64,000 bases of DNA from Burkholderiales bacterium (GCA_027493935.1 JAOSJV010000010.1:654387-718386); one strand, 5' to 3'; shown: positions 938 to 26,533, counted from the stretch's first letter. Notes: generated by a model from the letters alone, not told the origin. A program made the numbers and translations.

Positions 938-1018
938 CTCCGCATCTCCTGTGTGGTGCTCCCGTTCCCGTCCGCAGAGCTGCGCTCGCGGGGGACTTGC
1001 CCGCCCCCCTCTCGCGCG

Positions 1019-1043
1019 AGATCCCCGCTTGCGTGGGGATGAC
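1019..1043. repeat. REP/dRS3-like palindrome, single copy
   Basis: Reverse complement reads GTCATCCCCACGCAAGCGGGGATCT, the same family as GTCATTCCCGCG..GGAATCC at 24.15, 29.48 and 48.58 kb. Confidence 0.6.
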
Positions 1044-1076
1044 GCTGCGCGCGCGGCTGTCGCCGCTTGCGCAGCG

Positions 1077-2805
1077 TCACTTCAGCGGCCAGACGGTGGA
1101 CAGGTACTTCCAGTTGATGAAGTAGTACAGCACGAAGGCCACCAGGAACACGATCGCCAGGACGAACGTGCCCGAGGCGGACCAGGCGTGCGTGCCCACG
1201 CCGCCGGTCCCGGTGAGCGATGCGGCCACCGAACCGGTCGGCGCCGGCGCGACGCCATCGCGCGCCCGCACGTGCTGGAAGCCGGGCGTCTCGATCTTCT
1301 TGCCGAGGAACACCGAGTAGACGGTGACCAGCAGGTACATCGCACCGCCCACGACCGCGAGCACACCGCCGATCCCCATCAGTCCGATCATCAGCCACGC
1401 GGTGCCGGGGGAACTCGAAACCGAGCGGGTTGCCGGAGAAGGCGACGTCCCAGTGCCGGCGCGGTACGCCGAGCGTGCCCGCGCCCATCATGAACAGCGA
1501 GAACACCGTCATGCCCAGACCGAACACGTAGGGCTGCCACTTGGCCACCCCCGGGAACGCCATCTCGCGCCGGAAGAGCACCGGGATGAGGAAGTAGGTG
1601 ATCCCCATGAAGGCCATGGTCGTACCGAGCACGACCGTCGCGTGGAAGTGGCCCGGCACGTAGAACGTGTTGTGCATGATCAGGTTCAGCTGCTCGGTGC
1701 CGAGGATCACCCCGGAGATCCCGCCGAGGAAGCCGAAGCCGATGATGCTGATGAAGATCGACGAGAACACCGGGTTGCCCCACGGCGCCTTGCGCAGCCA
1801 CTCGAACAGGCCCTTGTTGAAGCCCTTCTGGCGCTGCGCCACCTCGATCGCCCCCGGCACCGTCAGGCCGTGCACCATCGACGCCAGCACGGCGAGGTAG
1901 AACGCGTAGCTCGTGTTGAGGATCTTCCACTTCGAGGTGAGGCCCGGATCGGCCAGCAGGTGGTGCGCGCTCGCGATCGTGATGAACAGGATGTAGAGCA
2001 GGAAAGCCGTGCGGCTCACCTTCTCGCTCATCGGCTTGGCGCCGAACAGGATCGCCGCGCCCGCGTACCATACCGCCACGTGCGCCGACACGTTGATCTG
2101 CTGCGAGCTGTGGCCGAAGGCCCAGAAAATGTGGCGGTACATCAGCGAGTCGATGGTCGGCACCATCCCGATCGACCACAGGAAGGTCGGGATCAGGATG
2201 ATGGCGCCGGAGGCGATCGTGAATACCGCGATGATCGCCGCGGTGAGCGCGCCGAAGGTGACGAGCGGCACCGAGCCGTTGTAGGTGCGCTCGGATTTGC
2301 CCACCGCCAAGGTGGCGAAGAAAACGAAGCAGCCGATCAGGGCGCCGACCGCGAACAGGATCAGCCCGAGATAGAACGTCCAGTGCGCGCCCATCGGCGC
2401 GTAGGCCGTGAACATCACGCTCGAGTCCTGGCGTACGAACACCGCATAGTTGTTCATCAGCCAGCCGATCACCATCAGCCAGAAGCCGGCCCACGCCCAG
2501 CGCGGCGCCGCCAGCCGGCAGTTGAGCAGCGTCGAGCCGGCGAAGTACAGCACCGCGATCTCGAAGAAGATGATCCAGAACACGAGCATGTTCAGCCCGT
2601 GGCCGGTGAGCACCATGTAGAACGCGTCGGGCGCGAGCAGGTGCACCGTCTGCCAGCGGGTCAGCGTCACCAGCAGCGCGAGGATGCCGCCGACCAGCAG
2701 CGCGACCACGCCGACCACCGCGTTCCAGCGGATCAGCGCGTCGGCCGGCTGATGGAACTTGAGGCCCGTCGTCGGGCAGGTCCGGAACATTCGATTGACA
2801 GCCAT
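1077..2805 (-). CDS. Heme-copper oxidase superfamily subunit I, eNOR-like nitric oxide reductase (frameshift at ~1407-1411)
   Basis: All six His ligands present (TGHG, FGH, AHH, GHFH). Helix VI reads FGHSSQQINV, with Gln instead of Tyr at H+4. Removing one base in a G5 run joins 787..2805 to 1077..1391 (GFEFPGTAWLMIGLMG). Confidence 0.85.
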
Positions 2806-2820: not shown

Positions 2821-3378
2821 TTACTTCTTGTCGGTGACGTACAGCTTGCTCACCATCGTGTGATGGTTGATGCCGCAGTACTCGTTGCAGATGATCGAGT
2901 ACGTGCCCGCCTTGGTCGGCTGCACGGTGAGGATATGCTCGTAGTTCGGGTGCACCTGGATGTTGATGTTCTCCGGCTGCAGCGAGAAGCCGTGCAGCCA
3001 GTCGAGCGACATCAGGTGCAGGCGGTAGGTCTGGCCGGCCTCGAGCTCGAGGATCGGCTCCCACTGCCAGAGCCGGGCGACGAGATAGACGTCGCTGCCC
3101 GCGGGCGGCTTCACGACCGGGATCTTGACTTCGTTCAGCCCGGTCTCCTCGCGCACCTTGTACTTGCCGACCATCTCCTGCACCTTCGCCGTGAAGCCCT
3201 CCGGGGTGTTGCGGTAGGCCTCGTTCGAGAGGTTCTGCTTACCGAACACGTGCCAGTACGGCATCATGAAGAACAGGAACATGCACCAGACGAAAGCCAT
3301 CAAGATCCAGGTGATCTCCACCTTCTCGATCGGCTCCTTCCACCACAGCCGGTTGGACGGCGGCTGAATCGCGCTCAT
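2821..3378 (-). CDS. Heme-copper oxidase subunit II with CuA site (eNOR subunit II)
   Basis: One TM helix plus cupredoxin domain: WLHGFS...CNEYCGINHHTM. Confidence 0.9.
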   Translation of the reverse strand: MSAIQPPSNRLWWKEPIEKVEITWILMAFVWCMFLFFMMPYWHVFGKQNLSNEAYRNTPEGFTAKVQEMVGKYKVREETGLNEVKIPVVKPPAGSDVYLVARLWQWEPILELEAGQTYRLHLMSLDWLHGFSLQPENINIQVHPNYEHILTVQPTKAGTYSIICNEYCGINHHTMVSKLYVTDKK

Positions 3379-3752: not shown

Positions 3753-3766
3753 TTGATCCATGTCAA
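3753..3766. promoter_or_regulatory. FNR/DNR-type box
   Basis: TTGAT-CCAT-GTCAA, the second box in the same intergenic region. Confidence 0.75.
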
Positions 3767-3804
3767 AATCCGTGCGGTCGCCGCATCGAATCATCCGCAT
3801 CGCC

Positions 3805-4894
3805 GTGTCGGATCGAACGTCGCTCGCCTTGCGCTCGCCCACCACAGTTCCGCTGCGCGGCGCGGCGCCCGAGCGCGCCGTGGCAGCCTGGCTGCTCGTT
3901 TGCGCCGCGCTCGTGTTCGCGATGGTCGTCGTGGGGGGCGTCACCCGGCTCACCCACTCCGGTCTGTCGATCGTCGAGTGGCAGCCGATCGTGGGCACCC
4001 TGCCGCCGCTGTCCGATGCCGATTGGATCGCGACCTTCGAGAAATACAGGCAGACGCCCGAGTACCTTCAGGTCAACCGGGGCATGAGCCTGGCGCAGTT
4101 CAAAGGCATCTTCTGGTGGGAGTACTTCCACCGACTGCTCGGCCGGCTGATCGGCATCGTGTTCTTGGTCCCGTTCGTCTGGTTCTGGATTCGCGGCCGG
4201 ATCGGCCGGCCGCTCGCCTGGAAGCTCCTCGGCGTGTTCGTGCTCGGCGGCCTGCAAGGCGCGATGGGCTGGTACATGGTGATGAGCGGGCTCGTCGACG
4301 ATCCGCGCGTGTCGCACTTCCGGCTGACCGCGCATCTCTCGATCGCCTTCCTGATCTTCGCCGCGCTCCTGTGGATCGCGATGAGCCTCCTCGCCCCGCG
4401 GCCGGCGGCCGGGCCGGGTGCGCGCGGGCCCGCCCGGCTCGGGTGGTGGATCACCGGCTTGATCGCGTACATGGTCGTCAGCGGCGGCTTCGTGGCGGGA
4501 ATCCGCGCCGGGAAGGCCTACAACACCTTCCCCCTCATGAACGGGCACGTGGTGCCGCCCGAGATCTTCATGATCGAACCCTGGTGGCAGAACTTCTTCT
4601 ACAACATGGCCACGGTCCAGTTCGACCACCGCCTCCGGGGCGTGGATGCTCGCGCTCCTGGTGCCGTGGTTCTGGCTGCGCACCCGCCGGACCGAGCTGC
4701 CGGTGCGCGCGCGCATCGCCGCCCACCTGCTCCTCGCCGCGCTCGTGGTCCAGATCACGCTCGGCATCACGACGCTACTGCTCGGCGTGCCGGTCGCGCT
4801 CGGGGCCGCGCATCAGGGCGGCGCAGTCGTGCTGCTCGCCGCGGCGTTGCTCGCGAACCACGCCCTGCGGAGGACCGGAGACGCGAAGGCGTGA
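3805..4894 (+). CDS. ctaA: Heme A synthase, COX15/CtaA family (frameshift at ~4635; start uncertain)
   Basis: [32 protein letters not shown] motifs. The C-terminus ([16 protein letters not shown]) continues in ORF 4646..4894. Confidence 0.9.
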
Positions 4895-5007
4895 CGGCGT
4901 CGCACGCCGTCACGCGCCGCGTCCGGTGCGGCCGCACGCCTTCGTCCCGGAACGCAGCGGCCTCCCGGCAGCGGTCCGGCGCCGCGCGCTCACCCGCCGG
5001 CCGGCGC

Positions 5008-5615
5008 TCAGCCGGCGGCGAGCGCCACGAGCTCGGGGTCGTCGAAATGGTCGATCAGGATGCGCCGCACCCGTTCCTGCCACAGTGCGCGGAACTCGCG
5101 CTGCTCGGCGGCGCTGGCGCCGCCCGCGGCGACGCGCGGCATCAGTGCCTTCAGCCGCGGCTCGGCGGGGACGCGCTCCGGCCGGAAGCCGGCAACCACG
5201 GCGGCGCCGGTGTCTAGCCGCACGAACCGCGCCTCGCCTCCTGTCGCGGCGTTGAAATGAAGCAGATCTCTGCGGTCGAACCGGCCGCCGATCCCTTTGA
5301 ACCCGCCGGCCTGGGCTGCACCGGTGAGCAGGCCGACGACGTGCGCGATCACGCCCGTCACGCCGCTCGCGAGGTCGTCGCGGAGCTCGACCCGGATCGC
5401 GCCGCGCTCGGGCCGCGCCGCGCCGTAGAGCCGCTCGAGCGCCTTCGCGGTCATGAGATAGGCGCCGGCGACGGTGGGGCAAGAGTGGCCGGCGAGGCGC
5501 ACCGCGTCGGCGTAGCAATACTCGACGAGGCCCTCGTCGGCCGCGCCGAGGAACTCGGCAAGCGGATCGTACATGACGATGCTGCGAACATCGCCGAAAA
5601 AGGGGGATGGCTCAT
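5008..5615 (-). CDS. FmdE-like putative metal-binding protein (probable frameshift at ~5597-5601)
   Basis: [12 protein letters not shown] motif. Adding one base in the A5 run gives [19 protein letters not shown], with an ATGA overlap on the upstream stop. Confidence 0.65.
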
Positions 5616-7438: not shown

Positions 7439-7534
7439 GGCACCGGGGGCGGCGCGTACACGCGCCACTGCGCTACCCGAGCCCGCCGGTCGAACCGCGG
7501 GCACCGCACGCGACTCTCCCGGGGCTTCACGCGC

Positions 7535-9818
7535 TCAGCAGCCCGTGAGCACGATCGGCTCGAGCGCATCGCCTTGCGGCAGGACGCGGCCGATCGCGGC
7601 CGCGCTCGCGTAGCCGAGCGCGCGCAGCGCCCGCACGCAGGGCTCGGCGCGCTCGGCCGGTACGCTCGCGAGCAGCCCGCCGGCGGTCTGCGGATCGAAG
7701 ATGAGCGGATAGTGCGGATGGCTCGCCGCCGCCCCCGTTGCGCAGCGCGCGGCGCAGCCGCACGTTGGCCGGCGCGAGCGAGCTCGCGATCCCCGCGGCA
7801 GCCGTCTCCGCGGCGCCCGCGAGCAGCGGCAGCGCCGCGAGGTCGAGCTCGGCGTCGACGCCCGAGGGCCGGGTCATCTCCACCAGGTGCCCGAGCAGCC
7901 CGAAGCCGGTGAGGTCGGTGCAGGCGGTGGCGCCGTGCTCGCGCAGGCACTGCGCGCCGAGGCGGTTCGACTGCGCCATCGATTCGAGCGCGGCGTCGAT
8001 CCAGCGGCCGCGCGCCCGCAGCCGGGCGTGCGCGGCGAACAGCGTCCCGGTGCCGATCGGCTTGGTGAGGACGAGCACGTCGCCGGGGCGCATGCCGCCC
8101 TTGCGCATCACCTGCGCGAGGTCCTCGTCGATCAGTCCGTTGACCGCGAAGCCGAGCGCGAGCTCGCGGCCCTCGCCGGTGTGCCCGCCGACCAGGGCGC
8201 AGCCTGCCTCGTTCAGCACCTCGATCGCGCCCGCCATCATCTGGAACACCGCGTCCTCGACCTTCGCCTCGAGCCCGGGCGGCACGGTCGCGATCGCGGT
8301 GGCCGACTGCGCCGCCGCACCCATCGCGTAGATGTCGCCGAGCGCGTGGTTGGCCGCCACCTTGCCGAAGAGATACGGGTCGTCGACGAAGGCGCGGAAG
8401 AAGTCCACGGTGTGGACCAACGCCTTGCCCGGGGGCACGCGCACCACCGCCGCATCGTCGGGCGCGTGCAACCCGATCAGCACGTCGTCGCGCTCGACCG
8501 GCCGCAGCGCGCCGAGCGCGCGCGAGAGCACGCTCGCGCCGACCTTCGCGCCGCAGCCGCCACAGCGCATCGCGACGGCCGAGATCGCCTGTAGCGCCTC
8601 CTCGTCCGCGAGCTCGACCGCCGCGGCGCCGGCCGTCTGCGGGGACGATGCTTCCATCGCCGGCAGATCGGCGAACTTCGCCATGAAGCGGCGGTCGATC
8701 CAGTCCTTCCAGCGCCACACCCAGGCGCCGGCGAATCCGAGCGCGCCGCGCGAGGCCACCGCGCAGCGGTCACCGGTGCTGATGAGCGCGAGCCAGCGCC
8801 GTTGCGGCCGGAAGCTTCGCAGCCGCCTGCCCTCGACCGCGCGGCGCAAGTTCTCGGCGAGCGGCGACCCCTGGCGCACGGCGAACACGCCGGCTTTCTC
8901 GCGCGGATGGTCCGCCATCGTCGCCGCGTCGCCGGCGGCGAAGACCGCCGGGTCGGTGAGCGTCTGCAGCGTGTCCTCGACCAGGAGAAAGCCCTGCGGG
9001 TCGAGCGCGAGGCCGGTGTCGCGCAGCCACGCGGCACCGCCCGCCTGGGTCACCCACACGATCTCGTCGGCCGCAACGTCCTCGCCCGAAGCGGTGTGCA
9101 GCCGCCCGGGCGCGACCTCGCTCACCTCGGCGCCGCAATGCAACGCAACGCCGCGCGCGGCGAGCGCCCGCTCGAAGCGCCGGCGCACGCCGCGATTGTG
9201 CGTCGGCAGGATCCGCGCCTCGGCGCCGAACAGGTGGAACGCGAGCGCGTCGGGGTCGCGGCCGAGCGCGCGCAGCTCGTTGCGCAGGCGGTGCTGCATC
9301 GCGAGCGTGAGCTCGACGCCGCCGGCGCCAGCACCGACGACCGCGATGGTGGTGCGCCCGGCGTGGCCGCGCACGCGCTCGAGCAACGCGAGCCAGCGCG
9401 CATTGAAAGCGTGGATCGGCTTCACCGGCACCGCATGATCCGCGGCGCCGGGCACCTCGCCCACTCGCGGCGTCGAGCCGATGTTGATCGAGAGCAGATC
9501 GTACGGCACCGGCGGGCGGCCGCGGCAGAGCACCCGGCGCGTCGCGCGGTCGATGCCGATCGCCTCGGCGCGGTAGAAGCGCGCGCGCGCGAACTCCGCC
9601 AGCCGCCTGAGATCGATGTGCACCTCGTCGTAGCCGTAGTGGCCGGCGATGTAGCCGGGGAGCATCCCCGAGTAGGGCGTGTGCGAGTCGGTGCAGACGA
9701 GCGTCAGGCGCACCCCCGCGAGCGGGCGCATGCCGAAGCGCTTGAGCACGGCGACGTGGCTGTGCCCGCCGCCGACCAGCACGATGTCCCGCAGGACCGG
9801 TTGTTCAGACGATTGCAT
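7535..9818 (-). CDS. selD: Selenide,water dikinase (SelD) fused to an N-terminal FAD-dependent pyridine nucleotide-disulfide oxidoreductase (frameshift at ~7732-7736)
   Basis: N-terminal VLVGGGHSH and VVGAGAGG; C-terminal [45 protein letters not shown] is restored after removing one base. Confidence 0.88.
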
Positions 9819-10002
9819 CGCGGTCCGACCTCTCGACTCGGTAAAGGCATCCACCGAGTCGGCTCCCCCGCCCGGCGGCGCGCCACCGCTGCAGCGACGC
9901 GCCAAGGCGCATGCTAGCAGTCCCTCCGCCAAGCCCGCGCGCCGCGTCAGCCGCTTCGCCATCGCCCGATCCGGCATCTTGATTGGCAGCTGCTGTACCC
10001 GC

Positions 10003-10019
10003 TGTAAGTGGCATGTAAG
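10003..10019 (+). promoter_or_regulatory. TGTAAG direct repeat with 11-bp period upstream of the sNOR-like operon
   Basis: TGTAAG at 10003 and 10014, about 50 bp upstream of the start codon. Confidence 0.35.
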
Positions 10020-10070
10020 AGCGGGATCGTACAGAAGCATCCAACCGAAGCGAACGGAGGAGAGCGTTCC

Positions 10071-11036
10071 ATGCGCAGTCTCTTGATGCCCGCTCTGATA
10101 TTCACGCTGGCGCTCGCCGGCCCGGCCCGCGCCGACCCGGCGGCCGAGGGCAAGGTCCTGTTCGAGCAGAAATGCGCCTCGTGCCACACCATCGGCGGCG
10201 GCGACCGCATCGGGCCGGACCTGCACGGCGTCGCCGAGCGCCGGCCGCAGGAGTGGCTGCTGCGCTTCGTCACCGAGCCGGACAAGATGATCGCGGCCAA
10301 GGACGAGGTCGCGGTGCGCCTGTACGAGAAGTACAACCGCATCATCATGCCCAACCTCGGTCTCGCCGAGAACGACGCGCGCGCGCTGCTCGCGCACATC
10401 CAGGCGGCGAGCTCGGCCACCCCGCCGGCTGCGGCAGCCCCGCCGACACCGCTGCGTATGCCGCGGCCGCAGCTCATCGCGCCGCAGTCCACCATTCTCG
10501 TGGCTTTCCTCGCGCTTGCGGCCGTGATCATCGCGGTCTTCGCCTGGGTCGCGCTCAGCACCCGCTCGCCCGCCGAGGTCGACGTGAAAAAGGCGTACGG
10601 GGTGCGCAAGATCTTCTTCGTCACCGCCAGCGTCGTGCTCGTCGCGCTGCTCATCGCGACGCTGCCGCGCGCGCCGTACGCCGGCGCCGACGTCAAGCCG
10701 GACCGCATCGTGCACGTCGCCGCGCGGCAATTCGACTTCGTTTTCTCCGACGAGCCGATCGTCAGCGCGTCCGACCTCGGCCGCGTGCCGACCATCCAGC
10801 GGCTCGAGCTGAAAGCGGGCGCGCTGGTCGAGTTCCGCGTCACCGCGCTCGACGTGAACCACGGATTCGGCCTGTACGGGCCGCAGCGCCAGCTCCTCGC
10901 CCAGACCCAGGCGATGCCGGGCTACGTCAACCGGCTGGTGGTGCGGCTCGCCGAGCCCGGCCAGTACAAGGTGTTCTGCCTCGAGTACTGCGCCGCCGGG
11001 CACCATCTCATGCAGTCCGGCGTCACGGTGAACTGA
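10071..11036 (+). CDS. Cytochrome c - CuA subunit II fusion (sNOR NorS-like)
   Basis: Signal peptide, CASCH heme c motif with distal MP, Pro/Ala linker, 2 TM helices, CuA domain (VNHGFG...CLEYCAAGHHLM); GGAGGAG RBS. Confidence 0.88.
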   Translation: MRSLLMPALIFTLALAGPARADPAAEGKVLFEQKCASCHTIGGGDRIGPDLHGVAERRPQEWLLRFVTEPDKMIAAKDEVAVRLYEKYNRIIMPNLGLAENDARALLAHIQAASSATPPAAAAPPTPLRMPRPQLIAPQSTILVAFLALAAVIIAVFAWVALSTRSPAEVDVKKAYGVRKIFFVTASVVLVALLIATLPRAPYAGADVKPDRIVHVAARQFDFVFSDEPIVSASDLGRVPTIQRLELKAGALVEFRVTALDVNHGFGLYGPQRQLLAQTQAMPGYVNRLVVRLAEPGQYKVFCLEYCAAGHHLMQSGVTVN

Positions 11037-11060
11037 GGCGACCCAGGAAGGAAATCGACG

Positions 11061-12482
11061 ATGCGCGCCATCTATTCGCAAACGCTCTACTGGATCGCGG
11101 TCACCTTCGTGCTGTTCCCGATCCTCGTCCTGCTCGGCATCTACATGCGCACGGTCCAGGCCGGGGGACTCGCCGGGCTCGACGCGTGGTTCTATCCGAT
11201 GATGACGCTGCACGGCGTCGGCATGGTCGGGGTCTGGTACGTGGCCTCGATGGCCTGCGCCGCCAACGTGCTGGCGAAGTACGTCGCGCCGTCGCCGGCA
11301 ATCGGGCGGCTCGCGCTCGTCGGCACGGTGATCGGCGTGGTGCTGCTGCTCGTCTGCGTGTTCCTGGGCCGGTTCGCCGCCGGCTGGTACTTCCTGTACC
11401 CGCTGCCGTTCAAGGGCGAGTGGCCGGCCTGGGCGGCGGTGGTGTTCCTGCTCTCGCTCACCGTGCTCGGCGCCACCTGGCTCGTCTGGTCGCTCGATCT
11501 CCTGCGCGCGATCGCTTCCAAGTACTCGCTGTCGCAGGCGCTCGGCTGGCACTATCTCTCCGGCAGCGGCGAGCTGGCGCTGCCGCCCGCGGTCCTGATC
11601 ATCACCGTCAGCCTGATCGCCTCGGTCGCGGCGCTGGTCGCCGGCGTGGTGGTGCTGGTGCTGTTCTACTTCGAGCTGCTGATCGGCGCGCCGAGCGACG
11701 CGCTGCTCATGAAGAACCTGATCTTCTTCTTCGGCCACACGCTGGTGAACCTCGCCATGTACCTCGGCGTGGCGCTCGCCTACGAGGTGCTGCCGCAATA
11801 CGCCGGACGGCCGTGGAAGACCAACAAGATCGTGGTGATCTCGTGGAACACCGTGCTCCTGATCGTGCTCGTCGCGTACTTCCACCACCTCTACATGGAC
11901 TTCGTGCAGCCCGGCGTGCTGCAGTACATCGGCCAGATCGCCTCGTACGCGAGCGCGATCCCGGCCGCGGTGGTCACGATCTTCGGCGCGCTGCTGCTCG
12001 TCTACCGCGCGAAGATGCGCTGGAACCTGGCCTCGATCCTGTTCTACCTCGGCCTGGTGGGCTGGGCGATCGGCGGGGTCGGCGCGGTGATCGATTCCAC
12101 CATCAGCGCCAACGTGCGGTTGCACAACACGCTGTGGGTGCCGGCGCACTTCCACACCTACATGGTGGCGGGGCTGGTGTTCCTGGTGGTGGCCTACTTC
12201 TATCACGCGTGCCAGGAGGCGAGCGCCGCGCCCGAATCCACCGGCTACCACAAGCTGCTCGCGGCGCTGCTGGTGATCGGCGCCTACGGCTTCTTTCTCA
12301 TGTTCTACCTGTCCGGGGCCTACTCGGTGCCGCGGCGCTTCGCGCTCTACCCGGCGGAGCTCGGGCACGGCGCGGTGTACTCGGGCATCGCGGCGGCCTT
12401 TGCGGCGGTGTTCCTGCTCGGCTTCGTCCTGTACCTCGTCGAGACCGGGCGGCGCTGGCTCAAGGCGGTGCAGGCGGCCTGA
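11061..12482 (+). CDS. Heme-copper oxidase superfamily subunit I, sNOR (NorY)-like nitric oxide reductase
   Basis: TLHG, FFGHTLVN (Asn instead of Tyr at H+4), YFHH and PAHFH motifs; followed by an SCO gene as in norSY-senC. Confidence 0.82.
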   Translation: MRAIYSQTLYWIAVTFVLFPILVLLGIYMRTVQAGGLAGLDAWFYPMMTLHGVGMVGVWYVASMACAANVLAKYVAPSPAIGRLALVGTVIGVVLLLVCVFLGRFAAGWYFLYPLPFKGEWPAWAAVVFLLSLTVLGATWLVWSLDLLRAIASKYSLSQALGWHYLSGSGELALPPAVLIITVSLIASVAALVAGVVVLVLFYFELLIGAPSDALLMKNLIFFFGHTLVNLAMYLGVALAYEVLPQYAGRPWKTNKIVVISWNTVLLIVLVAYFHHLYMDFVQPGVLQYIGQIASYASAIPAAVVTIFGALLLVYRAKMRWNLASILFYLGLVGWAIGGVGAVIDSTISANVRLHNTLWVPAHFHTYMVAGLVFLVVAYFYHACQEASAAPESTGYHKLLAALLVIGAYGFFLMFYLSGAYSVPRRFALYPAELGHGAVYSGIAAAFAAVFLLGFVLYLVETGRRWLKAVQAA

Positions 12483-12486
12483 GCCC

Positions 12487-13261
12487 GTGCGCCGAGCGCT
12501 GCACGGCGTGCTGACCGCGCTCGCGCTGACGCTCGCCGCCGCGTGCGGCGCAGCGACGCCGCCGCTCGGCGTCTCGCGCGCGGAACACCGGCTCGTCGAG
12601 CGCGCGGTGCCCGACATCCCGCTGCGGCTCGCCGACGGCCGCGCGCTGCGCATGTCGGACCTCGCCGCTGGCAAGCCGCTCCTGGTCGCCTTCTTCTACC
12701 GCCGCTGCACCGGGGTATGCACGCCGTTCCTGGAATGGGTGCGCGACGCGGTGCGCGAGACGGGTGGTCTGGGCACCGACTACCGGGTGCTCGCGCTCAG
12801 CTTCGACGACGCCGACACGGTCGCCGACGTGCGGGCGCAGGCCGAGACGCTGGGCCTCGCCCAGGCCGCGGGCTGGTCGTTCGCGGTCGCCGAGCGTGCG
12901 GCGCTCGCACGGGTCACCGGAGCGCTCGAGTTCTGGTACCGGCGCGACCCGACGACCGGGCAGTACGACCACCCCGCGCTGCTGGTGGGGCTCGATCGCG
13001 GACGGGTGGTGCGCGCGCTGGTCGGCGGTCCGGACGGGCGGGAGCGGCTGCGCGCGATGGTCTGGGAGCTGCGCGGCAATTTCATCCCGTTCTACAAGGT
13101 GCCGGGGCAGACGCCGCTCGCCTGCCTCGCGTTCGATCCCGACACCGGCAAGACCCGGCCTCGACTGGGGCCTGCTCCTGCTGGTGCTGCCGGCGCTCGC
13201 GGCGATCGGCGCCGCGCTCGCCGTATTCCTCGCTCCCGTGCGGTGGCGTCGAGTCGCCTGA
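12487..13261 (+). CDS. SCO1/SenC family copper chaperone (frameshift at ~13154)
   Basis: FFYRRCTGVCTP (CxxxC) and YDHP His; the C-terminal TM helix DWGLLLLVLPAL is in a shifted frame. Confidence 0.82.
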
Positions 13262-13314
13262 CTGCATGCGCGGCGGCGCGGCTGCCCCCCCGGGCGCAGC
13301 CGCGCGTTGTGCGC

Positions 13315-14151
13315 TCAGTCCTTCAGCAGGCCGTCGAAAAGGCTCATCACGTCGGCATCGGCCACGTGCTTGGCCCGGAGGTCGGCGGTCGTGTATGCGG
13401 CGCTGCGCGCGATGGCGGCGTCGAAGCCGCTGCGCGCGTCCTGGAATGTCACCAGGCTCACCGACGGCGCACCGAGCTGCTGCGCGCGCCCGATGCGCGA
13501 AACGCAGCTGCCATCACGGTAGCGGGAATCCGCGGTGCCGTGCAGGATCTTGACCGGCGCAGACGGCTTCCACGTGCTGCGCGCGACACCGCCGAAAGCG
13601 TCGTCGAGGGCGCAGCTCGGGTAGAAGGCGACCGCGGCCTTGAACGGGCTCGCACCGCCCGCGCTGCGCGATGCGTCCACTGCCGCGAGCGCACCGCTCG
13701 CGCCGTGCGACCACCCGATCAGGCCGACGCGGTCCGCGTGCGCGATCCCGGTCGCCGCGAGGAAGCGGTAGGCGGCATCGGCGTCGGCGGCGCGCTCGGC
13801 GGTCGCGGCACCCCCGCGATCACAGCTCACCTGCGTCTCGCGGGGCGTGTCGCTGTCGACGAGAAGCGCCGCATAACCGGCTGCAGCCAGGCGCTCGCCC
13901 CACGTGCGGTAGGACTCTCCGGCGGCCTGCGCCGGCGCGCCGATCGCCTCGGCACAGCCCGGCAGCATGACCACGGCCGGATGCGGGCCACGATCGGCCG
14001 GCCGGAAGAGCGTCCCCGGGATCATCCGTCCCTGCGGGTTAGTGAACGCCACCTCCTGCGTCGTGGCGATGCTTGCCTGCGCGGCGCCCACGAGACCCGC
14101 GAAAGCGGCAGCGACGGCGGCACTGGCAACGGTCTTGTTCATGCGGGTCAT
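13315..14151 (-). CDS. Secreted dienelactone hydrolase family protein (catalytic His apparently missing)
   Basis: Signal peptide; GWSHG nucleophile elbow; AFYPSC; ILHGTAD; DARSGFD where H-G-F is expected. Confidence 0.75.
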   Translation of the reverse strand: MTRMNKTVASAAVAAAFAGLVGAAQASIATTQEVAFTNPQGRMIPGTLFRPADRGPHPAVVMLPGCAEAIGAPAQAAGESYRTWGERLAAAGYAALLVDSDTPRETQVSCDRGGAATAERAADADAAYRFLAATGIAHADRVGLIGWSHGASGALAAVDASRSAGGASPFKAAVAFYPSCALDDAFGGVARSTWKPSAPVKILHGTADSRYRDGSCVSRIGRAQQLGAPSVSLVTFQDARSGFDAAIARSAAYTTADLRAKHVADADVMSLFDGLLKD

Positions 14152-14401: not shown

Positions 14402-15202
14402 ATGGATTTTCTGCCACCCGCCAAGCTGCTCGACGAGATCGAGACGGCGAGCAAGAAGAAAGCCGGCCTGCCGGTGCGCAACATGCTGCTCACCGGCTTT
14501 CTGTCCGGCGCGCTGCTCGCGTACGCCACCGCCTTTGCGTTCAAGGTCTCCGACGGGCTGCCGGGCGGGGCCACCTGGCTCGTCGCCGGAGCCGTGTTCC
14601 CGGTGGGCTTCGCAATCATCACCCTCCTCGGGCTGGAGCTCGCCACCGGCAATTTCGCGCTGATGGCGGTCGGTGTTGCGCGCGGCGGCACGTCCGTTCG
14701 GCAGACGCTGCGCAACTGGACCTGGGTCTATCTGGGGAACTTCGCCGGCAGCGTGTTCGTGGGCGGCCTGCTCGCCGTCGCACTCACCGCCGCCTTCACC
14801 CACGGCGGCGGCCCGCTCGGCGAGCGCATCGTCGCCGTGGCCGAGTCCAAGACCCTCGCCTATGCGCACGCCGGCGGCGCCGGCTGGCTCACCGCATTCG
14901 TCGAGGGCGTCCTGTGCAACTGGATGGTCACGCTCGGCTCGGTGCTCGGGCTGAGCTCGACCTCGAGCATCGGCAAGATCGCCGGCGTGTGGCTGCCGAT
15001 CTCGGTGTTCTTCGCGCTCGCGCTCGAGCACTCGATCGTCAACATGTTCGTCATCCCGACCGCGATGGTGCTGGGCGCGCCCATCAGCGCCGGGCAATGG
15101 CTGTGGTGGAACCAGCTTCCGGTGACACTCGGCAACATCGTCGGCGGCGCGGTGCTCACCGGCCTGCTGCTGCACCACGGTCACCGCATGGCACGCGCGT
15201 AG
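14402..15202 (+). CDS. Formate/nitrite transporter (FNT) family channel
   Basis: FPVGF, ELATGN, NFAGS, GVLCNWMV, EHSIVNM and TLGNIVGG motifs. Confidence 0.92.
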   Translation: MDFLPPAKLLDEIETASKKKAGLPVRNMLLTGFLSGALLAYATAFAFKVSDGLPGGATWLVAGAVFPVGFAIITLLGLELATGNFALMAVGVARGGTSVRQTLRNWTWVYLGNFAGSVFVGGLLAVALTAAFTHGGGPLGERIVAVAESKTLAYAHAGGAGWLTAFVEGVLCNWMVTLGSVLGLSSTSSIGKIAGVWLPISVFFALALEHSIVNMFVIPTAMVLGAPISAGQWLWWNQLPVTLGNIVGGAVLTGLLLHHGHRMARA

Positions 15203-15227: not shown

Positions 15228-16877
15228 TCAGTGCAGCAGCTTCTCGAGCGCGCGGATGCGCGCGGGCGGCTCCATGTCGAGGTGCTTGCGCAGTGCAGCA
15301 CGGCAGCACTCGTACTGCTGGCGCGCCTCGACGACGCGGCCGGCGCTCGCGAGCTGGGCGACGAGCAGCTCGTACAGGTCGAGCGCCACCGGCTCGAAAT
15401 CGAGCGCGGTGCGCAGCGTCCAGATGGCCTCGTCGGTGTGCCCCCAGCGGATGCGCATGGCGGCGAGCGAGCGGGCGGCGTCGAGATACATGTGCCGCAG
15501 CCGGACGCGGTGGGTCTCGAGCGATTCGTCCTCGGTGTCGTCGGCGAACAGGTCGCCGCGGAAGAGCCGGACCGCGTCCTCGAGCAGGCCGAGCGCACGC
15601 TGCTCCGCGCCTTCGCGCTGCGCGCTGCGCGCAGTGGCGATGAAATCGAGGAAGTCGAACAGATCGACCGAGTGCGGCGCCTCCGTGTTGAAAAAGTAGT
15701 GATCGTCGCGGCACACGATGTACTCGGAGGCGCGCGCCCCTCGCCCGGATTCGATCGCCGAGCGCAGCGCGTTCACCACGCCGTGCAGCCGGTTGGCGCC
15801 CGCGCGCGGCGACGCCTCGGGCCAGAGCAGCTCGACGAGCCGGTCGCGATGCACCGGAATGCCGCGCCGCAGCACGAGCTGCTTCAGCAGCTGCAGCGCC
15901 TTGCGGCGCGCGAACGCGTCGGGGGCCAGTTTTTGCCCGCTGCGGAAGATCTCGAACGGACCGAAGCAGCGCAGGGCGAGGCGTGCCGAGGGCAGGTCGG
16001 TGCAGCGCGTCGGCAGCACGCGGCGCGGCACCGCGAGCGGAATGATCGACCGCACCGCCTCGAGCACGCGTACGCCCCATTCCATCGGCACCGAACCATC
16101 GCGCCAGCCCACGCCCACGTACCCGAGCGGACGGCCGCCCTCGACCAGCGGGACGCCGAGAAACGAGCGGATCCCGCAGCGCTTGACCTCGCCGCGCAGG
16201 AACAGGCGGTCTTTCTGGAACCGGTTTGTGAAGAGCGGCTTCTGCAGCAGCGTCACGGTGCCCGGGTAGCCGGCGCCGAGCGGCATGTGCGTGAGCTGCA
16301 TGAACGCTTCGCGATCGTAGCCCTCGCAGTCCACGAGAAAGACCTCCTTCCCGGCGGTGTCGAGCACGAAGAGCTCGCAGTCGTCGGCGGCGCAGACACG
16401 GCGCAGGCCCTCGAGCGTGCTCTCGATGGAGCCCAGGCGCTCGGCGAGCGCGCCGCGGATCACCACCGCTTCCAGCCACGCGCTGCCGAACCCCCGGCCG
16501 TCACGTGCGACAGGGGGAAACCACACCAGCGCACCGTGCGACGGGTCGGACAGCGGCAGGATGGCGCAGTGCATCGGCGGCGACGCCTCGGACCGCGCGT
16601 CGCGCGCGAGCGCGGACCGCGCCCCGTTCGCACCGGGACAGCGCGCACACCGCGCGTCGGGCCGGCCGTGATGGCGCTCGGCCACGACGTCCCAGCAGAA
16701 CCGTCCCACCGCCGACTTGGCGGGCACGCGCAACGCCCGCGCGGTGGCATCCGGCCACGCCCGGATGCGGAACCGGCCGTCCACCCAGAAAAAAGGGACG
16801 AAACGGCTCGCCCCGCTCCAGCTCACCCGAGACAGGCAATCAACGACCCCGCGCCTTTGATCGTGCGCACCGATCAT
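15228..16877 (-). CDS. Transcriptional regulator: Cys-rich PAS-like + GAF + winged-helix/BTAD (SARP-like); start uncertain
   Basis: LRCFGPFEI, RDRLVELLWPE, VDLFDF, LFRGDLF and LDMEP BTAD signature; GAF segment (GAGYPG, SFLGVPL); N-terminal FCWDV..CARCP..HC. Confidence 0.8.
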   Translation of the reverse strand: MIGAHDQRRGVVDCLSRVSWSGASRFVPFFWVDGRFRIRAWPDATARALRVPAKSAVGRFCWDVVAERHHGRPDARCARCPGANGARSALARDARSEASPPMHCAILPLSDPSHGALVWFPPVARDGRGFGSAWLEAVVIRGALAERLGSIESTLEGLRRVCAADDCELFVLDTAGKEVFLVDCEGYDREAFMQLTHMPLGAGYPGTVTLLQKPLFTNRFQKDRLFLRGEVKRCGIRSFLGVPLVEGGRPLGYVGVGWRDGSVPMEWGVRVLEAVRSIIPLAVPRRVLPTRCTDLPSARLALRCFGPFEIFRSGQKLAPDAFARRKALQLLKQLVLRRGIPVHRDRLVELLWPEASPRAGANRLHGVVNALRSAIESGRGARASEYIVCRDDHYFFNTEAPHSVDLFDFLDFIATARSAQREGAEQRALGLLEDAVRLFRGDLFADDTEDESLETHRVRLRHMYLDAARSLAAMRIRWGHTDEAIWTLRTALDFEPVALDLYELLVAQLASAGRVVEARQQYECCRAALRKHLDMEPPARIRALEKLLH

Positions 16878-17075
16878 ACTCCCGATTCGCGCAACCTCCG
16901 GCGCGGGCGGCGGTGGTGATCCGGCCGGGCACGGCAGGCGCCGGGGATGACGCACCCGCCGCCGCGTCGGGCACCCGCACGACCGGACGCCGTCGTTGGC
17001 GGCCAAGCGCGCAGCGCCGGTTTCATCTGCGTCACGCCCGCACCCCTGTACGGGTGGCGCAGGCGCCGGCCAAAG

Positions 17076-18075: not shown

Positions 18076-19635
18076 TCAGTGGCTGGTGCCCTCCGAGCGC
18101 GTGATCTTGTTGTGGACGTTGTACTTGCCCACCGGCCGCCTCATCGGCAGTCGCTTCACTTCCCGGAACGTCGCCGCGTCGTAGATTACGAGCGCGCCGT
18201 CCATCTCCCATACCGAGACCAGCGCATGGCGGCCGTCGCGCGTGAACTCGACGTGCGCGGCGGTCTTCCCGGGAGCGGGCGTCACCGACGCCACCACCTC
18301 GAGCGAGCGCTTGTCGATGATCTGCAGCGTGTCCTTCTTCGGGCTCATCATCGCGTCCACCCAGGCGTAGGGTGTGGCCTCGTGGCTGCGCATGAAGAAG
18401 CCCGGGCCATTGGTCGGGATCTGCCGCACCAGTTGCCAGCGCTTGACGTCGATCACGCTGACCACACCCTCCTTGAGATTGGGCGTGGCCATCACCCGCG
18501 AGCCGCCGTGCTCCCACGTGATGCCCGAGCCGAGGTGGGGCATGCCCGGCAGGTCGAGGTCGGCGATCTTGCGGCGCACGTCGAGGTGTACCACCTGGCC
18601 CTTGCGGCCCTCGCTGCGCGAGGCGCCCATCAACTGGCTGTAGTCCGGCGTGAAGAAGAAGTCGTCCAGGTAGTCCTGCAGCATCGAGCGGCGCGGGTTG
18701 AGGAAGCCGGGGACGAACGCGCCCTCCCGGTACCGGAAATCGTGGATCATCCCGGTCGGAATCTCGGGCGCCTTCGGGTCGTAGCTGATCTCCCAGACCT
18801 CCGGGATGTCCTTCAGCGCGGCGACGAAGCTCCTGCGCGGGGCGGCGGTATACACCGCGGACACGCGCGAGGTGCGCTCGCCCTTGCCGTCGACCACAGC
18901 CAGCAGCTTCACCGGGCGAAGGTCCGCGTCCAGCACCACGAGCGTGTGCGGCAGGTAGTTGCCCACCATCACGTGCTTCCCGTCGCCCGACACCGCGGCG
19001 TTGCGGGTGTTCAGACCGGCGCGGATCTCGGCGATCATGCGCAGGTTCCACAGGTCGTACTTCGAGATCCAGCCGTCGCGCGAGGCGAAATAGACGAAGC
19101 GGCCATCGGGCGAGAACTTGGGCCCGCCGTGCAGCGCGTAGCGGCTGGCGAAGCGCGCGAGCGGCGTGAAGCGGTCGCCGTCGAGGACCGTGACGTGATG
19201 GTCGCCCGCCTCCACGACCACGAAGAGGTTCAGCGGGTCGGCGTCGAACGCGGGCTTCGCCGGCAGCAGCGCGGTATCGGCGTGTACCACGCGCGAGGCC
19301 CGGATGTCGTCGAGCCCCCACTCGGGTTTCGTCGCCGGCTCGGCGTAGACGTAGGCGACCAGCGCGTCGATCTCGTCCGGCGCGAGCCTGTCCGCGAAGC
19401 CCGGCATTTGCGTGGCGACGCGGCCCTCGGCGATGACCTGCGCCGCGGCCGGCCTGCGCAGCCGCTCCAGATTCGACGGCAGCAGCGCCGGGCCCGTGCC
19501 GCCGAAGCGGTCGGCCCCATGGCATGCGGCGCAGTGCTCCGCGTACAGTTCGGCGGCCGCACTCACCGCCGCGGCCGGCGGCACGGTTGCGGCGAGCGCC
19601 AGCGCTAGCATCATCGCCGCACGCGCGCGCCTCAT
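18076..19635 (-). CDS. nirN: NirN, cytochrome c/d1-domain protein of heme d1 maturation
   Basis: CAACH heme c motif plus d1 beta-propeller (LHGGPKFS, MPHLGSG, FFMRSHE, GKYNV); last gene of the nir operon. Confidence 0.92.
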   Translation of the reverse strand: MRRARAAMMLALALAATVPPAAAVSAAAELYAEHCAACHGADRFGGTGPALLPSNLERLRRPAAAQVIAEGRVATQMPGFADRLAPDEIDALVAYVYAEPATKPEWGLDDIRASRVVHADTALLPAKPAFDADPLNLFVVVEAGDHHVTVLDGDRFTPLARFASRYALHGGPKFSPDGRFVYFASRDGWISKYDLWNLRMIAEIRAGLNTRNAAVSGDGKHVMVGNYLPHTLVVLDADLRPVKLLAVVDGKGERTSRVSAVYTAAPRRSFVAALKDIPEVWEISYDPKAPEIPTGMIHDFRYREGAFVPGFLNPRRSMLQDYLDDFFFTPDYSQLMGASRSEGRKGQVVHLDVRRKIADLDLPGMPHLGSGITWEHGGSRVMATPNLKEGVVSVIDVKRWQLVRQIPTNGPGFFMRSHEATPYAWVDAMMSPKKDTLQIIDKRSLEVVASVTPAPGKTAAHVEFTRDGRHALVSVWEMDGALVIYDAATFREVKRLPMRRPVGKYNVHNKITRSEGTSH

Positions 19636-20831
19636 GTCGCCGCCGCCTTTCTGCGGCTATACGGCGACACCGACAATCGCGCGCGCTCGGGCGCGACGCC
19701 GATCTCCTCGTCGTCCAGGTAGCAGCCCGGGTCCTCCTCCCACGCGTCGCCGGTCAGGCTGCGCGCGCGGGTGCGGGTGTTCCCACCGCACACGTCGAAG
19801 TAGGCGCACGCGCCGCAGCGGCCCTTGATCGAGCGCGGGCTCGCCTTGAGGCCCGCCATGATCGGGTCGGAGTCGTCCCGCCAGATCTCCGAGAAGGCCC
19901 GCTGGCGCACATTGCCGAGCGTGTAGTCCCACCAGTAGGTGTCCGGATGCACGTCGCCGATGTTGTCGATGTTCGCGACGTTCACGCCGGAGCTGTTGCC
20001 GCCCCACTGCGCGAGCTTCGCGCGCACGTGCGCTTCCATGTGCGGCAGGTTGCGCCGCACCCACAAGAGAAAGTACACGCCGTCGGCGTCGTTGTTGCCG
20101 GTCACGAACTCCTTTGCGAGACCGCGCGACTGGCGGTCCCAGCACGTGTCGAACAGGAGATCCATCGCGCGGCGCGTGGTGGCGAGGTAGGCGTCGTGCC
20201 GACGGTTCACGTTGCCTCGTCCGGCGTAATTCAGATGCGACAGGTAGAACTTGTCGATGCCCTCGGACTCGGTCAGCGCGAGAAGCCATGGCAGGTCGTC
20301 GCGATTCGCCTCGGTCAGCGTGAAGCGAACGCCGATCTTGATGCCGGCGTCGCGGCAGCGGCGCAGCGCGTCGATCGAGGCGTCGAACGCACCGGCCTTG
20401 CGCCGGAACCGGTCGTGGGTCGCGCGCCGCCCGTCCAGACTGATGCCGACGTAGTCGAAGCCGACCTCGGCGACGCGGGCCACGTGCGGCGCGTCCATCA
20501 GCGTGCCGTTGGTCGAGAGCGCGGTATAGAACCCCTCGGCTCTCGCGCGGTGCGCGATGTCGAAGATGTCTGGCCTGAGCAGCGGCTCGCCGCCGGAGAG
20601 AATGAGCACCGGCACGCCGAAGCGCTTGAGGTCGTCCATGACGCCGAACACCTCTGCGGTGGACAGCTCGCCCGGGAAGTCGATGTCGGCGGACACCGAG
20701 TAGCAGTGCCGGCACGTCAGGTTGCACCGCCGGATCAGGTTCCAGATCACCACCGGTCCCGGTGGATTGCGCTTCGGCCCCACCGGCGTCGGCGCTGCCA
20801 GCTCCTGCATGAATTGCGAGACGCGGAACAT
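19632..20831 (-). CDS. nirJ: Heme d1 biosynthesis radical SAM protein NirJ
   Basis: GPVVIWNLIRRCNLTCRHCY; C-terminal SPASM-type cysteines. Confidence 0.93.
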   Translation of the reverse strand: MFRVSQFMQELAAPTPVGPKRNPPGPVVIWNLIRRCNLTCRHCYSVSADIDFPGELSTAEVFGVMDDLKRFGVPVLILSGGEPLLRPDIFDIAHRARAEGFYTALSTNGTLMDAPHVARVAEVGFDYVGISLDGRRATHDRFRRKAGAFDASIDALRRCRDAGIKIGVRFTLTEANRDDLPWLLALTESEGIDKFYLSHLNYAGRGNVNRRHDAYLATTRRAMDLLFDTCWDRQSRGLAKEFVTGNNDADGVYFLLWVRRNLPHMEAHVRAKLAQWGGNSSGVNVANIDNIGDVHPDTYWWDYTLGNVRQRAFSEIWRDDSDPIMAGLKASPRSIKGRCGACAYFDVCGGNTRTRARSLTGDAWEEDPGCYLDDEEIGVAPERARLSVSPYSRRKAAAT

Positions 20832-20848
20832 CGCAGGTTTCTCCTTTT

Positions 20849-20956
20849 CCCCTCCTCTCCGAGGGGTGCCGGCGAAGCCGGCGGGGTGGTGACCGCCGAT
20901 CGGGACTCGAGCCACCCCGGCTGCTTCGCAGCCACCCCTGCTCGAAAAGGAGGGGA
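20849..20956. repeat. Palindromic repeat family 2, copy 1
   Basis: CCCCTCCT...GCCGGCGAAGCCGGCGGGGTGGT...ACCCCGGCTGCTTCGCAGCCACCCCT...AGGAGGGG; an inverted related copy lies at 46691-46803. Confidence 0.7.
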
Positions 20957-20976
20957 AAAGGAACCAGGCAACGCCT

Positions 20977-21477
20977 TCACTCCGCTCTCAACCGCAACCC
21001 CGTCTTCTTCAGGATCCGCCTGCTGTAGAGCACCTCGTGCGCGCGCGCCGCGTCGCCGAGCAGCGCGGCGATCTCGCCGACGTGCGCGCCGACCTCGTCG
21101 CGCGTGCGGCCGTGGACCATCGCGAACAGGTTGTAGCGCCAGCGCGGCGGCACGCGCGGCCGGCGATAGCAGTGGCTCACGAACGCGAGCGCGCCCACCT
21201 GCGGGCCGAGCGCCGCAATGCGGTCGTCCGCGACGTCCCACACCGACATGCCGTTCGCCGGGTAGCCGAGCGCGTAGTGGTTCGGCACCGCGGCGATGCG
21301 CCGGATCACGCCGAGCGACTTCATGCGGGCGAGCCGCGCCATCACCTCCTCGGCCGACAGCCCGAGCGAGCGCGCCACCGCGTGGTAGGGCTCGACGGCG
21401 AGCGGCAGTCCGCCCTGCGTCGCGAGGATGATCGCGCGGTCGGTCTGATCCAGCCGGATCTCGGCGGGCGCGTTCAT
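20977..21477 (-). CDS. nirH: Siroheme decarboxylase subunit NirH
   Basis: Lrp/AsnC-like; VPNHYALGY, VSHCYRR, YNLFAMVH, ILKKTG. Confidence 0.9.
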   Translation of the reverse strand: MNAPAEIRLDQTDRAIILATQGGLPLAVEPYHAVARSLGLSAEEVMARLARMKSLGVIRRIAAVPNHYALGYPANGMSVWDVADDRIAALGPQVGALAFVSHCYRRPRVPPRWRYNLFAMVHGRTRDEVGAHVGEIAALLGDAARAHEVLYSRRILKKTGLRLRAE

Positions 21478-21479
21478 TG

Positions 21480-21923
21480 CTACACGGCGATGCGCAGATC
21501 GAGGAAGTACTCGTCGAGCTTGGGCAGGTCGAGCACCGCGAGCCCCGTCTCCCGCTCGATGTCGGCGATCACGCGGGCAACCGCCTCGGGCCGCTCGCAC
21601 GCAACCACGAACCACATATTGAGCGCGTGCTCGCGCTCGTAGTTGTGCGCCACTTCCGGGTGCGCGTTCACGAGCGCGGCCACGCGATCGAAATCCGCGG
21701 CCGGGACGCTCATCGCGGCGAGCGTGAAGGCGCCGCCCATCGCCGTCGCGTCGTACATCGGGCCGAAGCGCGTGAGCGCACCGTCGGCGAGCAGGCGCGC
21801 GATGCGCGCGAGGAGCGCGTCCTCCTCCACGTCGAGCGCGGCGGCCACCGGTGCAAACGGCCGCGCGGCGACCTCGACGCCGTGCTGCAGCCGGTTCACG
21901 ACGGCGCGGTCGAGCTCATCCAT
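21480..21923 (-). CDS. nirG: Siroheme decarboxylase subunit NirG
   Basis: RFGPMYD, VAHNYEREH, NMWFV. Confidence 0.9.
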   Translation of the reverse strand: MDELDRAVVNRLQHGVEVAARPFAPVAAALDVEEDALLARIARLLADGALTRFGPMYDATAMGGAFTLAAMSVPAADFDRVAALVNAHPEVAHNYEREHALNMWFVVACERPEAVARVIADIERETGLAVLDLPKLDEYFLDLRIAV

Positions 21924-22956: not shown

Positions 22957-22958
22957 GG

Positions 22959-24618: not shown

Positions 24619-24644
24619 GATCCGGATTTGCGCCGCCGGCGAAT

Positions 24645-24658
24645 TTGATGCACCTCAA
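24645..24658. promoter_or_regulatory. FNR/DNR-type box upstream of nirC
   Basis: TTGAT-GCAC-CTCAA located between the nirS terminator and nirC. Confidence 0.7.
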
Positions 24659-24701
24659 GCACGCTGCACGGCACGCAACCGCGTTTCTCCCGCACACCGG
24701 C

Positions 24702-24728
24702 AAAAAAACGGGGGCGTCGCGTCCCCGC
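24702..24728 (-). terminator. Rho-independent terminator of nirS
   Basis: Minus strand CGGGGACGCGACGCCCCCG followed by T7. Confidence 0.75.
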
Positions 24729-24772
24729 TTCCGCCGGCCGCGCGCGGCGGCCGGCTCCCCTTGCGAGCGCCC

Positions 24773-26533
<1,761 letters not shown>

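Follow-up and report, generated by a model that had tools for sequence, protein, structure and literature searches.

The locus described here raises the question of whether a member of the sNOR family of heme-copper oxidases can carry its own electron donor, covalently tethered to its CuA subunit. It lies in a 64,000-nucleotide stretch of DNA from a Burkholderiales bacterium (GCA_027493935.1, JAOSJV010000010.1:654387-718386; G+C ~70%), hereafter the window, in which three co-directional genes between positions 10071 and 13261 encode a subunit II, a subunit I and a Sco-like copper chaperone. sNOR is one of several proposed, biochemically unproven nitric oxide (NO) reductase families and has a bearing on microbial emission of nitrous oxide (N2O); a covalently attached cytochrome c would tell the source of the enzyme's electrons. 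We favor the reading, with a probability of roughly 70%, that the operon encodes a cytochrome-c-dependent member of the sNOR family, a putative NO reductase, whose donor is tethered to the N-terminal side of subunit II.

The gene for subunit II (10071..11036, plus strand, 321 aa) is preceded by a GGAGGAG ribosome-binding site 9 nt before its start. Its product divides into a signal peptide (residues 1-21), a class I cytochrome c domain (22-116), a Pro/Ala linker (117-138), a transmembrane (TM) hairpin (139-200) and a CuA cupredoxin domain (205-321), an arrangement that the original prediction had read correctly from the DNA and that is borne out by Pfam, structure modeling and ligand conservation. 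Pfam recognizes Cytochrom_C (PF00034, E 1.3e-9) over residues 24-112 and COX2 (PF00116, E 6.9e-5, 23.2 bits versus a cut-off of 22) over residues 221-315. The cytochrome c domain (10134..10418, plus strand) contains the heme motif C35-A-S-C38-H39, GPDL at 48-51, W62 and M93-P94, all invariant or nearly so among 38 homologues; the CuA ligands of the cupredoxin domain (10683..11033, plus strand), namely H264, C303, E305, C307, H311 and M314, are all invariant among 38 homologues. An AlphaFold2 model built on 38 homologues (mean predicted local distance difference test, pLDDT, 84.3; predicted template-modeling score, pTM, 0.71) places a helical domain at residues 23-116, a low-confidence segment at 117-138, long helices spanning 139-163 and 172-200 and, over 212-320, a beta-sandwich. 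When the TM-plus-cupredoxin part was submitted to Foldseek, the top matches were two-TM subunit II chains of cytochrome oxidases, with the caa3 chain 2YEV_B at rank 5; the latter is also a sequence match to the CuA part. The loop between the two helices is rich in Lys and Arg (STRSPAEVDVKKAYGVRK), which fits a cytoplasmic location of the loop and hence the topology of the hairpin.

Modules like the cytochrome c domain of subunit II recur as tandem repeats in tri- to penta-heme cytochromes without CuA (P0163, P0166, P0175, P0178, P0180 and others), and ActA of Alternative Complex III (6BTM_A, E 6.9e-14) is likewise similar to the module. The longer matches among protein clusters at 50% identity (P0163, P0166 and others), considered as possible longer fused forms, were rejected as multi-heme cytochromes with no CuA motif.

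Subunit I (11061..12482, plus strand, 473 aa) belongs to the COX1 family (PF00115, E 1.7e-49) and carries GHTLVN, as originally noted, at residues 225-230, with Asn230 in place of the cross-linked Tyr. Its six canonical His residues (H51, H226, H275, H276, H363 and H365) are each kept in 83-85 of 85 relatives, N230 in 84, Y234 in all 85, Y241 in 84 and E/D242 in 84, while position 306 is occupied by Thr in 69 and by Ser in 16. At a constant offset of 13, N230, Y234, Y241, E242 and T306 match the sNOR signature given in Dataset S1 of Murali 2024 (N-243 for the cross-linked Tyr, Y-247, Y-254, E-255 and T-319, in the numbering of the B. azotoformans sNOR), the equivalence being drawn by spacing. 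The residue at the Tyr position is listed as Asn in sNOR and Gln in eNOR (PMC8756737, Table A4).

Relatives were collected by scanning one genome per species, and the best 80 of the resulting 300 were examined as loci; 11 more came from sampling a further 400 genomes within the order of the source organism. In an IQ-TREE phylogeny of 96 rows, the window's subunit I falls within a clade of 41 rows (support of 96 in the Shimodaira-Hasegawa-like approximate likelihood ratio test, SH-aLRT). The same clade includes a locus (L029) whose subunit I is letter for letter OFW14006.1, one of 13 sequences labelled SNOR in Dataset S4 of Murali 2024. The 11 loci from same-order genomes form a sister branch to the other 81 rows. 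In this branch, which is like that of ammonia-oxidizing bacteria (AOB), one genome (G126) bears a gene of the amoA/pmoA family, the helix VI motif is FFGHVFINAxIYMxVIxVYE, and the members are 37-41% identical to the window's subunit I. Because the signature residues agree and the published representative shares the clade, the assignment of subunit I to the sNOR family of heme-copper oxidases, to the exclusion of other families, is sound on signature, tree and co-clustering, in line with the original prediction.

The fusion itself is widespread. Across 81 rows (80 loci and the window), subunit II is fused in 38, with a CxxCH motif ~265-285 residues before the CuA motif; 36 have a plain subunit II of ~175-280 residues and 7 are cut by contig ends. 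All 38 fused rows lie inside the 41-row clade, whose remaining three members are two cut loci and the unfused L071, and the history of the fusion needs two changes on the tree, one gain and one loss (L071). Since 38 of 81 loci carry it, all in one clade and accountable by two changes, the N-terminal fusion appears to be under selection. Judged by record titles, the clade comprises Pseudomonadota, Acidobacteriota, Bdellovibrionota, Myxococcota, Binatota, Spirochaetota and Verrucomicrobiota, and the presence of seven phyla in one fused clade argues for lateral spread. The gene order subunit II, subunit I, Sco-like protein is shared by almost all of the 80 related loci, which is beyond chance. 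A search among protein clusters at 90% identity gave the same picture, as the best 120 listed matches (265-364 aa) all carry PF00034 at query coverages of 83-100%; at 50% identity, full-length fused sequences represent at least five clusters. In sludge, groundwater and soil, it is the fused form that Proteobacteria and Acidobacteriota commonly have, and annotation-based surveys will miss it.

The suggestion of a distinct sNOR architecture in this genome was therefore right in part: the architecture is real and the AOB-like sNOR is unfused, but with 38 of 81 loci in one clade it is not special to this organism. Neither this fusion nor a second one, considered below, was found described in the literature searched, which did not extend to the SI Appendix of Murali 2024, where relevant material may stand; the word "fused" does not occur in that paper's main text. 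The fused architecture is thus standard within a large sNOR sub-clade, as yet unnamed, whose members this literature counts but does not describe. The occurrence of sNOR in non-nitrifying denitrifiers had already been published: numerous non-nitrifiers are listed in Dataset S8 of Murali 2024, among them Steroidobacter denitrificans and the SCUD01 genome (our L012).

Comparison with the sNOR of ammonia oxidizers brings out what is shared and what is added. The common subunit I signature of that enzyme and the wider family (Asn for Tyr, Y, Y, E, T; Murali 2024) is accompanied in the AOB operon, norSY-senC-orf1, by a likewise two-TM CuA subunit II, a Sco/SenC gene directly downstream and often a neighboring formate/nitrite transporter (FNT) gene. 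The analogy with norSY-senC drawn by the original prediction holds for three genes and fails for the fourth, as the window's operon has no gene for an orf1-type membrane protein, such as is present in L083, L087 and L090. The window's Sco-like protein differs from that of AOB in being divergent and C-terminally anchored, and a SARP-like regulator is attached to the operon. Whereas the window's subunit II begins with a cytochrome c, that of the amoA-bearing genome is unfused (174 aa, COX2 only, no heme motif), and a plain subunit II is found in seven loci of the 11-row sister branch, that genome included. Unfused homologues align from residue ~130-150 of the window's subunit II and so retain both membrane helices, for which reason the gain of a periplasmic N-terminal domain would have needed only a signal peptide and a linker.

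Class I cytochrome c is likewise fused to the CuA subunit in caa3 oxidases, as in subunit IIc of Thermus thermophilus (2YEV chain B), where it is a built-in electron donor and lies C-terminal to CuA, a placement for which the match ranges of 2YEV_B were also used. In the window the cytochrome c is N-terminal (24-112 versus CuA at 221-315) and precedes the TM hairpin, that is, it stands on the opposite side of CuA from that of caa3, as had been predicted; moreover, Asn230 occupies the position of the Tyr cofactor of caa3, an A-family O2 reductase. An order like that of caa3 is found in another sNOR branch, in which subunit II of L090 (L090:4524-5462, minus strand) and of L091 has COX2 at 104-170 followed by a C-terminal Cytochrom_C at 206-287. 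This domain is undetected with the window's cytochrome c domain as query, and it is, to judge from its sequence and position, a second, independent, caa3-like fusion, which once more ties an sNOR CuA to a c-type cytochrome. A further comparison is offered by bNOR/CuANOR of Bacillus azotoformans, the only biochemically characterized enzyme with an Asn-type site, whose active-site make-up is the same and which also contains a CuA subunit and a conserved channel (Murali 2024); we set it apart by its description there as a separate, convergent family restricted to Bacillales.

From this architecture a working scheme can be proposed. Export by the Sec pathway and cleavage of the signal peptide would deliver the class I cytochrome c to the periplasm, tied by a Pro/Ala linker of ~22-35 residues to the first membrane helix of the hairpin; after the second would come the CuA cupredoxin, such that both redox domains would be periplasmic. 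The bc1 complex or a soluble cytochrome c would supply electrons to heme c, and these would travel through CuA and subunit I's low-spin heme to the high-spin heme/CuB site, where Asn230 substitutes for the Tyr needed for O2 reduction and where the presumed reaction would be 2NO + 2e- + 2H+ -> N2O + H2O. The set Y234-Y241-E242-T306 could serve proton delivery from the cytoplasm, and the Sco-like protein may load CuA or keep it reduced. A built-in, spectroscopically visible donor would make the enzyme easier to assay, including by flash or stopped-flow kinetics.

Several points weigh against a donor-tethered NO reductase. NO reductase activity is a proposal, biochemically undemonstrated, for any sNOR (Murali 2024). 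Contact between heme c and CuA in subunit II is itself only proposed; predicted docking of the CuA domain (205-321) against the cytochrome c domain with heme (22-118) scored 0.02 relative to a mark of 0.32, which speaks neither for nor against it. No NCBIfam model exceeded its cut-off for subunit I or II, leaving neither with a family-level name, and the Pfam COX2 and Sco scores barely exceed theirs. The phylogeny is a quick IQ-TREE run with SH-aLRT support only, its outgroups are the genome's own paralogues on very long branches, so that its root is approximate, and references for eNOR, bNOR, gNOR, nNOR and the B-family other than these paralogues are absent from it; the loci counted are kin and therefore not independent. 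An FNR/DNR box (TTGAT-N4-ATCAA, at least 8 of 10 positions, within 300 nt upstream) was found in 3 of 38 fused loci, the window not among them; it was rejected as a control element, and the upstream region thus gives no direct sign of classic denitrification control.

To these may be added the induction, 2.7- to 10.8-fold under O2 limitation, of the sNOR of N. europaea, for which a role as an O2 reductase has been argued and which has been affiliated with B-type oxidases (PMC6967387, Sedlacek et al. 2020). By extension, the enzyme considered here could be mainly a high-affinity terminal O2 reductase, B-family-like and furnished with a tethered cytochrome c, for which NO reduction is a side reaction. 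The nesting of the sNOR family among oxygen reductases (Murali 2024) is compatible with this, as is the metal site, which has three CuB-type His and no extra Glu ligand. However, the cross-linked Tyr is required for O2 reduction (Murali 2024), and it is replaced by Asn in nearly every relative as counted above; the operon is placed between an eNOR-like operon and a nirS cluster, and the genome already possesses two high-scoring COX1-family oxidases. On balance we consider an oxygen reductase unlikely.

A different role for the cytochrome, which we rate as more improbable still, would make it a maturation or maintenance module that, together with the Sco-like protein, keeps the CuA cysteines or copper reduced. 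The nearest solved structure to the cytochrome c module is indeed the cytochrome c domain of a SCO1/SenC-cytochrome c fusion (2L4D_A, E 7.4e-21, query residues 26-115), and a Sco-like gene is co-encoded with the sNOR subunits. In 2L4D, however, the cytochrome is borne by the Sco protein and only the cytochrome domain is alike, whereas here it is fused to the CuA subunit. Unfused sNORs, moreover, retain the Sco-like gene with no cytochrome c in the locus: a search for a separate homologous cytochrome c beside unfused operons gave only weak matches of ~25% identity, in two Fervidibacter loci. The independent C-terminal fusion to CuA in another sNOR branch mirrors caa3, and with it favors a tethered electron donor over a maturation module.

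The third gene of the operon (12487..13261, plus strand, GTG start) encodes the Sco/SenC-like copper chaperone. It scores 23.8 bits with PF02630 (cut-off 22.8), as a divergent Sco, and an alignment of 72 sequences shows RCxGxCxP, a conserved His and a TM anchor at the C-terminus; a lipoprotein N-terminus, considered for it, was dropped since the Cys is not conserved among relatives. A SCO gene had been predicted at this place and is present, with the qualification that its end at 13261 holds only if one base is skipped. The extra base, 13159, shifts the gene out of frame right before the C-terminal membrane helix, at a point where all relatives are in frame (FDPxTGxxRLDWGLLLL). Contigs from DNA runs of three independent metagenomes (X2, X3 and X4) were compared over 9800-13400, and every one that covers the position lacks the base. 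Because three runs are without it and the relatives are in frame, we attribute the frameshift to an assembly error here or, at most, to a lesion specific to the strain.

Indel-type breaks such as this one, and another near 1390-1400 where the eNOR-like subunit I changes frame, might suggest that the fusion is an artefact of assembly or gene calling or that the operon is a decaying pseudogene cluster, a notion of negligible probability and refuted for the fusion, given that the fused gene is contained whole in a contig of run X4 (9800-11625, 2 differences) and one of run X2 covers 10128-11876 (1 difference), which places the fused frame in independent assemblies, that 37 other genomes share this frame, as do the best 120 listed clusters at 90% identity, and that the independent DNA runs lack the extra base of the Sco-like gene.

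Near-identical DNA is, furthermore, not confined to the source assembly: in 13 studies, metagenomes from sludge, bioreactors and biofilms contain 83-98% of sampled words of 10071-13300. The figure for one metatranscriptome library is 42% of these words, and its contigs (10005-10759, 11419-11911, 12159-12314 and 12656-12844) cover parts of all three genes. As metatranscriptome libraries can contain DNA, this gives a weak hint that the operon is expressed.

A candidate for its control is encoded downstream and convergently, at 15228..16880 (minus strand; the start at 16880 is drawn from where homologue alignments begin). The protein combines a four-Cys N-terminal domain, a GAF domain, an OmpR-type winged helix and a BTAD domain (Pfam: BTAD 2.1e-22, GAF_2 5.2e-10, Trans_reg_C 1e-4), and the four Cys are conserved among homologues. 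It resembles the SARP (AfsR/BTAD) activators in pairing a winged helix with BTAD, but differs from them in its four-Cys and GAF domains, in its occurrence in Proteobacteria and other Gram-negative phyla and in adjoining a respiratory operon; NCBIfam SARP models match it weakly, at 44-50 bits, far short of cut-offs of 500-1430. Homologues directly follow the Sco-like gene in 21 related loci.

Upstream of the operon, 68 nt before the start of subunit II, a direct repeat of 11-nt period, TGTAAG-N5-TGTAAG (10003..10019, plus strand; TGTAAGTGGCATGTAAG), overlaps the -35 region. SARP activators typically bind an 11-nt direct repeat adjoining a -10-like element, a layout that the window's site shares. 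With up to one mismatch the repeat is unique in the window, and none of 100 shuffles contained a match. Allowing up to two mismatches, 22 of the 38 fused loci have it between -45 and -89, namely every one of the 21 with a detected regulator and 1 of the 17 without such detection, counts whose independence is overstated since the loci are kin and the flanks extend 4 kb. Of the 36 matches on both strands of 1.44 Mb of locus sequence, these upstream sites account for 21, and a conserved CGTACA follows the repeat at 8-10 nt (8 in the window). A sigma-54 promoter was also considered and rejected: a TGGCA near the repeat has the wrong GG-to-GC spacing, as judged by eye, and is not conserved in L011 and L013. 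We regard the TGTAAG repeat as the putative operator of the SARP-like regulator, which probably drives transcription of the operon through it; the signal could be NO or O2, perceived by way of an Fe-S cluster or the GAF domain. Through the conserved regulator-operator pair, the signal that turns on sNOR becomes open to experiment, and that signal bears on the dispute between NO reduction and O2 scavenging.

Between the operon and the regulator, a convergent dienelactone-hydrolase gene follows the Sco-like gene, and a formate/nitrite transporter (NirC-like) is encoded at 14402..15202 (plus strand; PF01226, E 3.2e-68). The FNT gene recurs beside sNOR operons, with tblastn matches in 14 related loci of various sNOR branches (L002, L007, L008, L027-L029, L033, L083, L087 and others), among which L083 and L087 are AOB-like; the copy in L083 is 67% identical to that of the window. 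Divergent from the operon, at 7527-9830 (minus strand), lies a gene for a fusion of a pyridine-nucleotide-disulfide oxidoreductase with AIRS/AIRS_C domains, resembling selenophosphate synthetase.

Nearer the start of the window is the eNOR-like operon, a second one of alternative NO-reductase type. Its subunit I (787-2805, minus strand) has GHSSQQ in helix VI, with Gln at the Tyr position and a Tyr at +15; past its frame break, the membrane-helix C-terminus continues in the frame of 1077-1487. A CuA subunit II follows at 2821-3378 (minus strand), and ctaB (8-937) and ctaA (3760-5217) flank the pair. On the far side of the regulator, a complete-looking cd1 nitrite reductase cluster extends over 18076-29458 and comprises nirN (18076-19653), a nirJ-like radical SAM gene (19632-20984), a NirD/L-type gene (21480-22004), nirF (22959-24302), a small cytochrome c (24238-24651), nirS (24773-26530), a NosR/NirI-like FMN/Fe-S protein (26671-28461) and a uroporphyrin methylase, nirE (28217-29458). 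Just outside the window are genes for a hemerythrin (L092:8376-8951), a CRP/FNR-type regulator (L092:8955-9797) and a canonical SCO1 (L092:17397-18386).

The original prediction placed the operon in a heterotrophic denitrifier. The gene content of the source genome, which has narG (C11), the nirS cluster and the eNOR-like enzyme, supports denitrification; heterotrophy is uncertain, as a RuBisCO large subunit is encoded at C1:293535-294461. In this 86.6%-complete assembly (G000) nosZ was not found: TIGR04246 and TIGR04244 match only the CuA domains of two subunit II genes, and the profile PF18764 gave no match, although its controls were silent too. Denitrification may therefore end at N2O, and the organism is possibly a facultatively autotrophic denitrifier with that end product. 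The search for nirK in the source genome yielded sub-cut-off multicopper matches only, amoA was not found by a family search that does detect it in G126, and no enzyme recognizable as cNOR or qNOR was found there.

Viewed jointly, these observations allow a broader proposal, which we advance tentatively, as possible rather than probable. It holds that the fused clade represents an NO-handling module, self-contained and horizontally mobile, that a c-type cytochrome is the donor for all sNORs, and that sNOR and eNOR are the main activated-sludge N2O sources in organisms of this kind. Such a module would consist of the fused CuA subunit, the sNOR catalytic subunit, a membrane-anchored Sco and a SARP-like activator that senses through Fe-S/GAF and reads the TGTAAG repeats. 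The N- and C-terminal fusions would then act as a "Rosetta stone" identifying a c-type cytochrome as the physiological donor of all sNORs. The role assigned to sNOR and eNOR as N2O sources would rest on the failure to find cNOR, qNOR or nosZ, together with the near-identical DNA in wastewater metagenomes of the 13 studies.

Two further COX1-family genes were noted in passing. A degenerate COX1-like membrane protein (L092:11656-13314, minus strand; PF00115, 34 bits), which is without the HH pair of CuB ligands, is encoded ~5.4 kb upstream of the start of the window, in the vicinity of the hemerythrin, CRP/FNR-type and SCO1 genes given above. Elsewhere in the source genome, a COX1-family protein (G000:C1:2420394-2421923, that is, L093:1395-2924) has no NCBIfam name and carries FAHNLME in helix VI, with Glu at the Tyr position. 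Glu is the residue listed there for nNOR in Dataset S1 of Murali 2024, and this protein may represent a third alternative NOR type in the genome.

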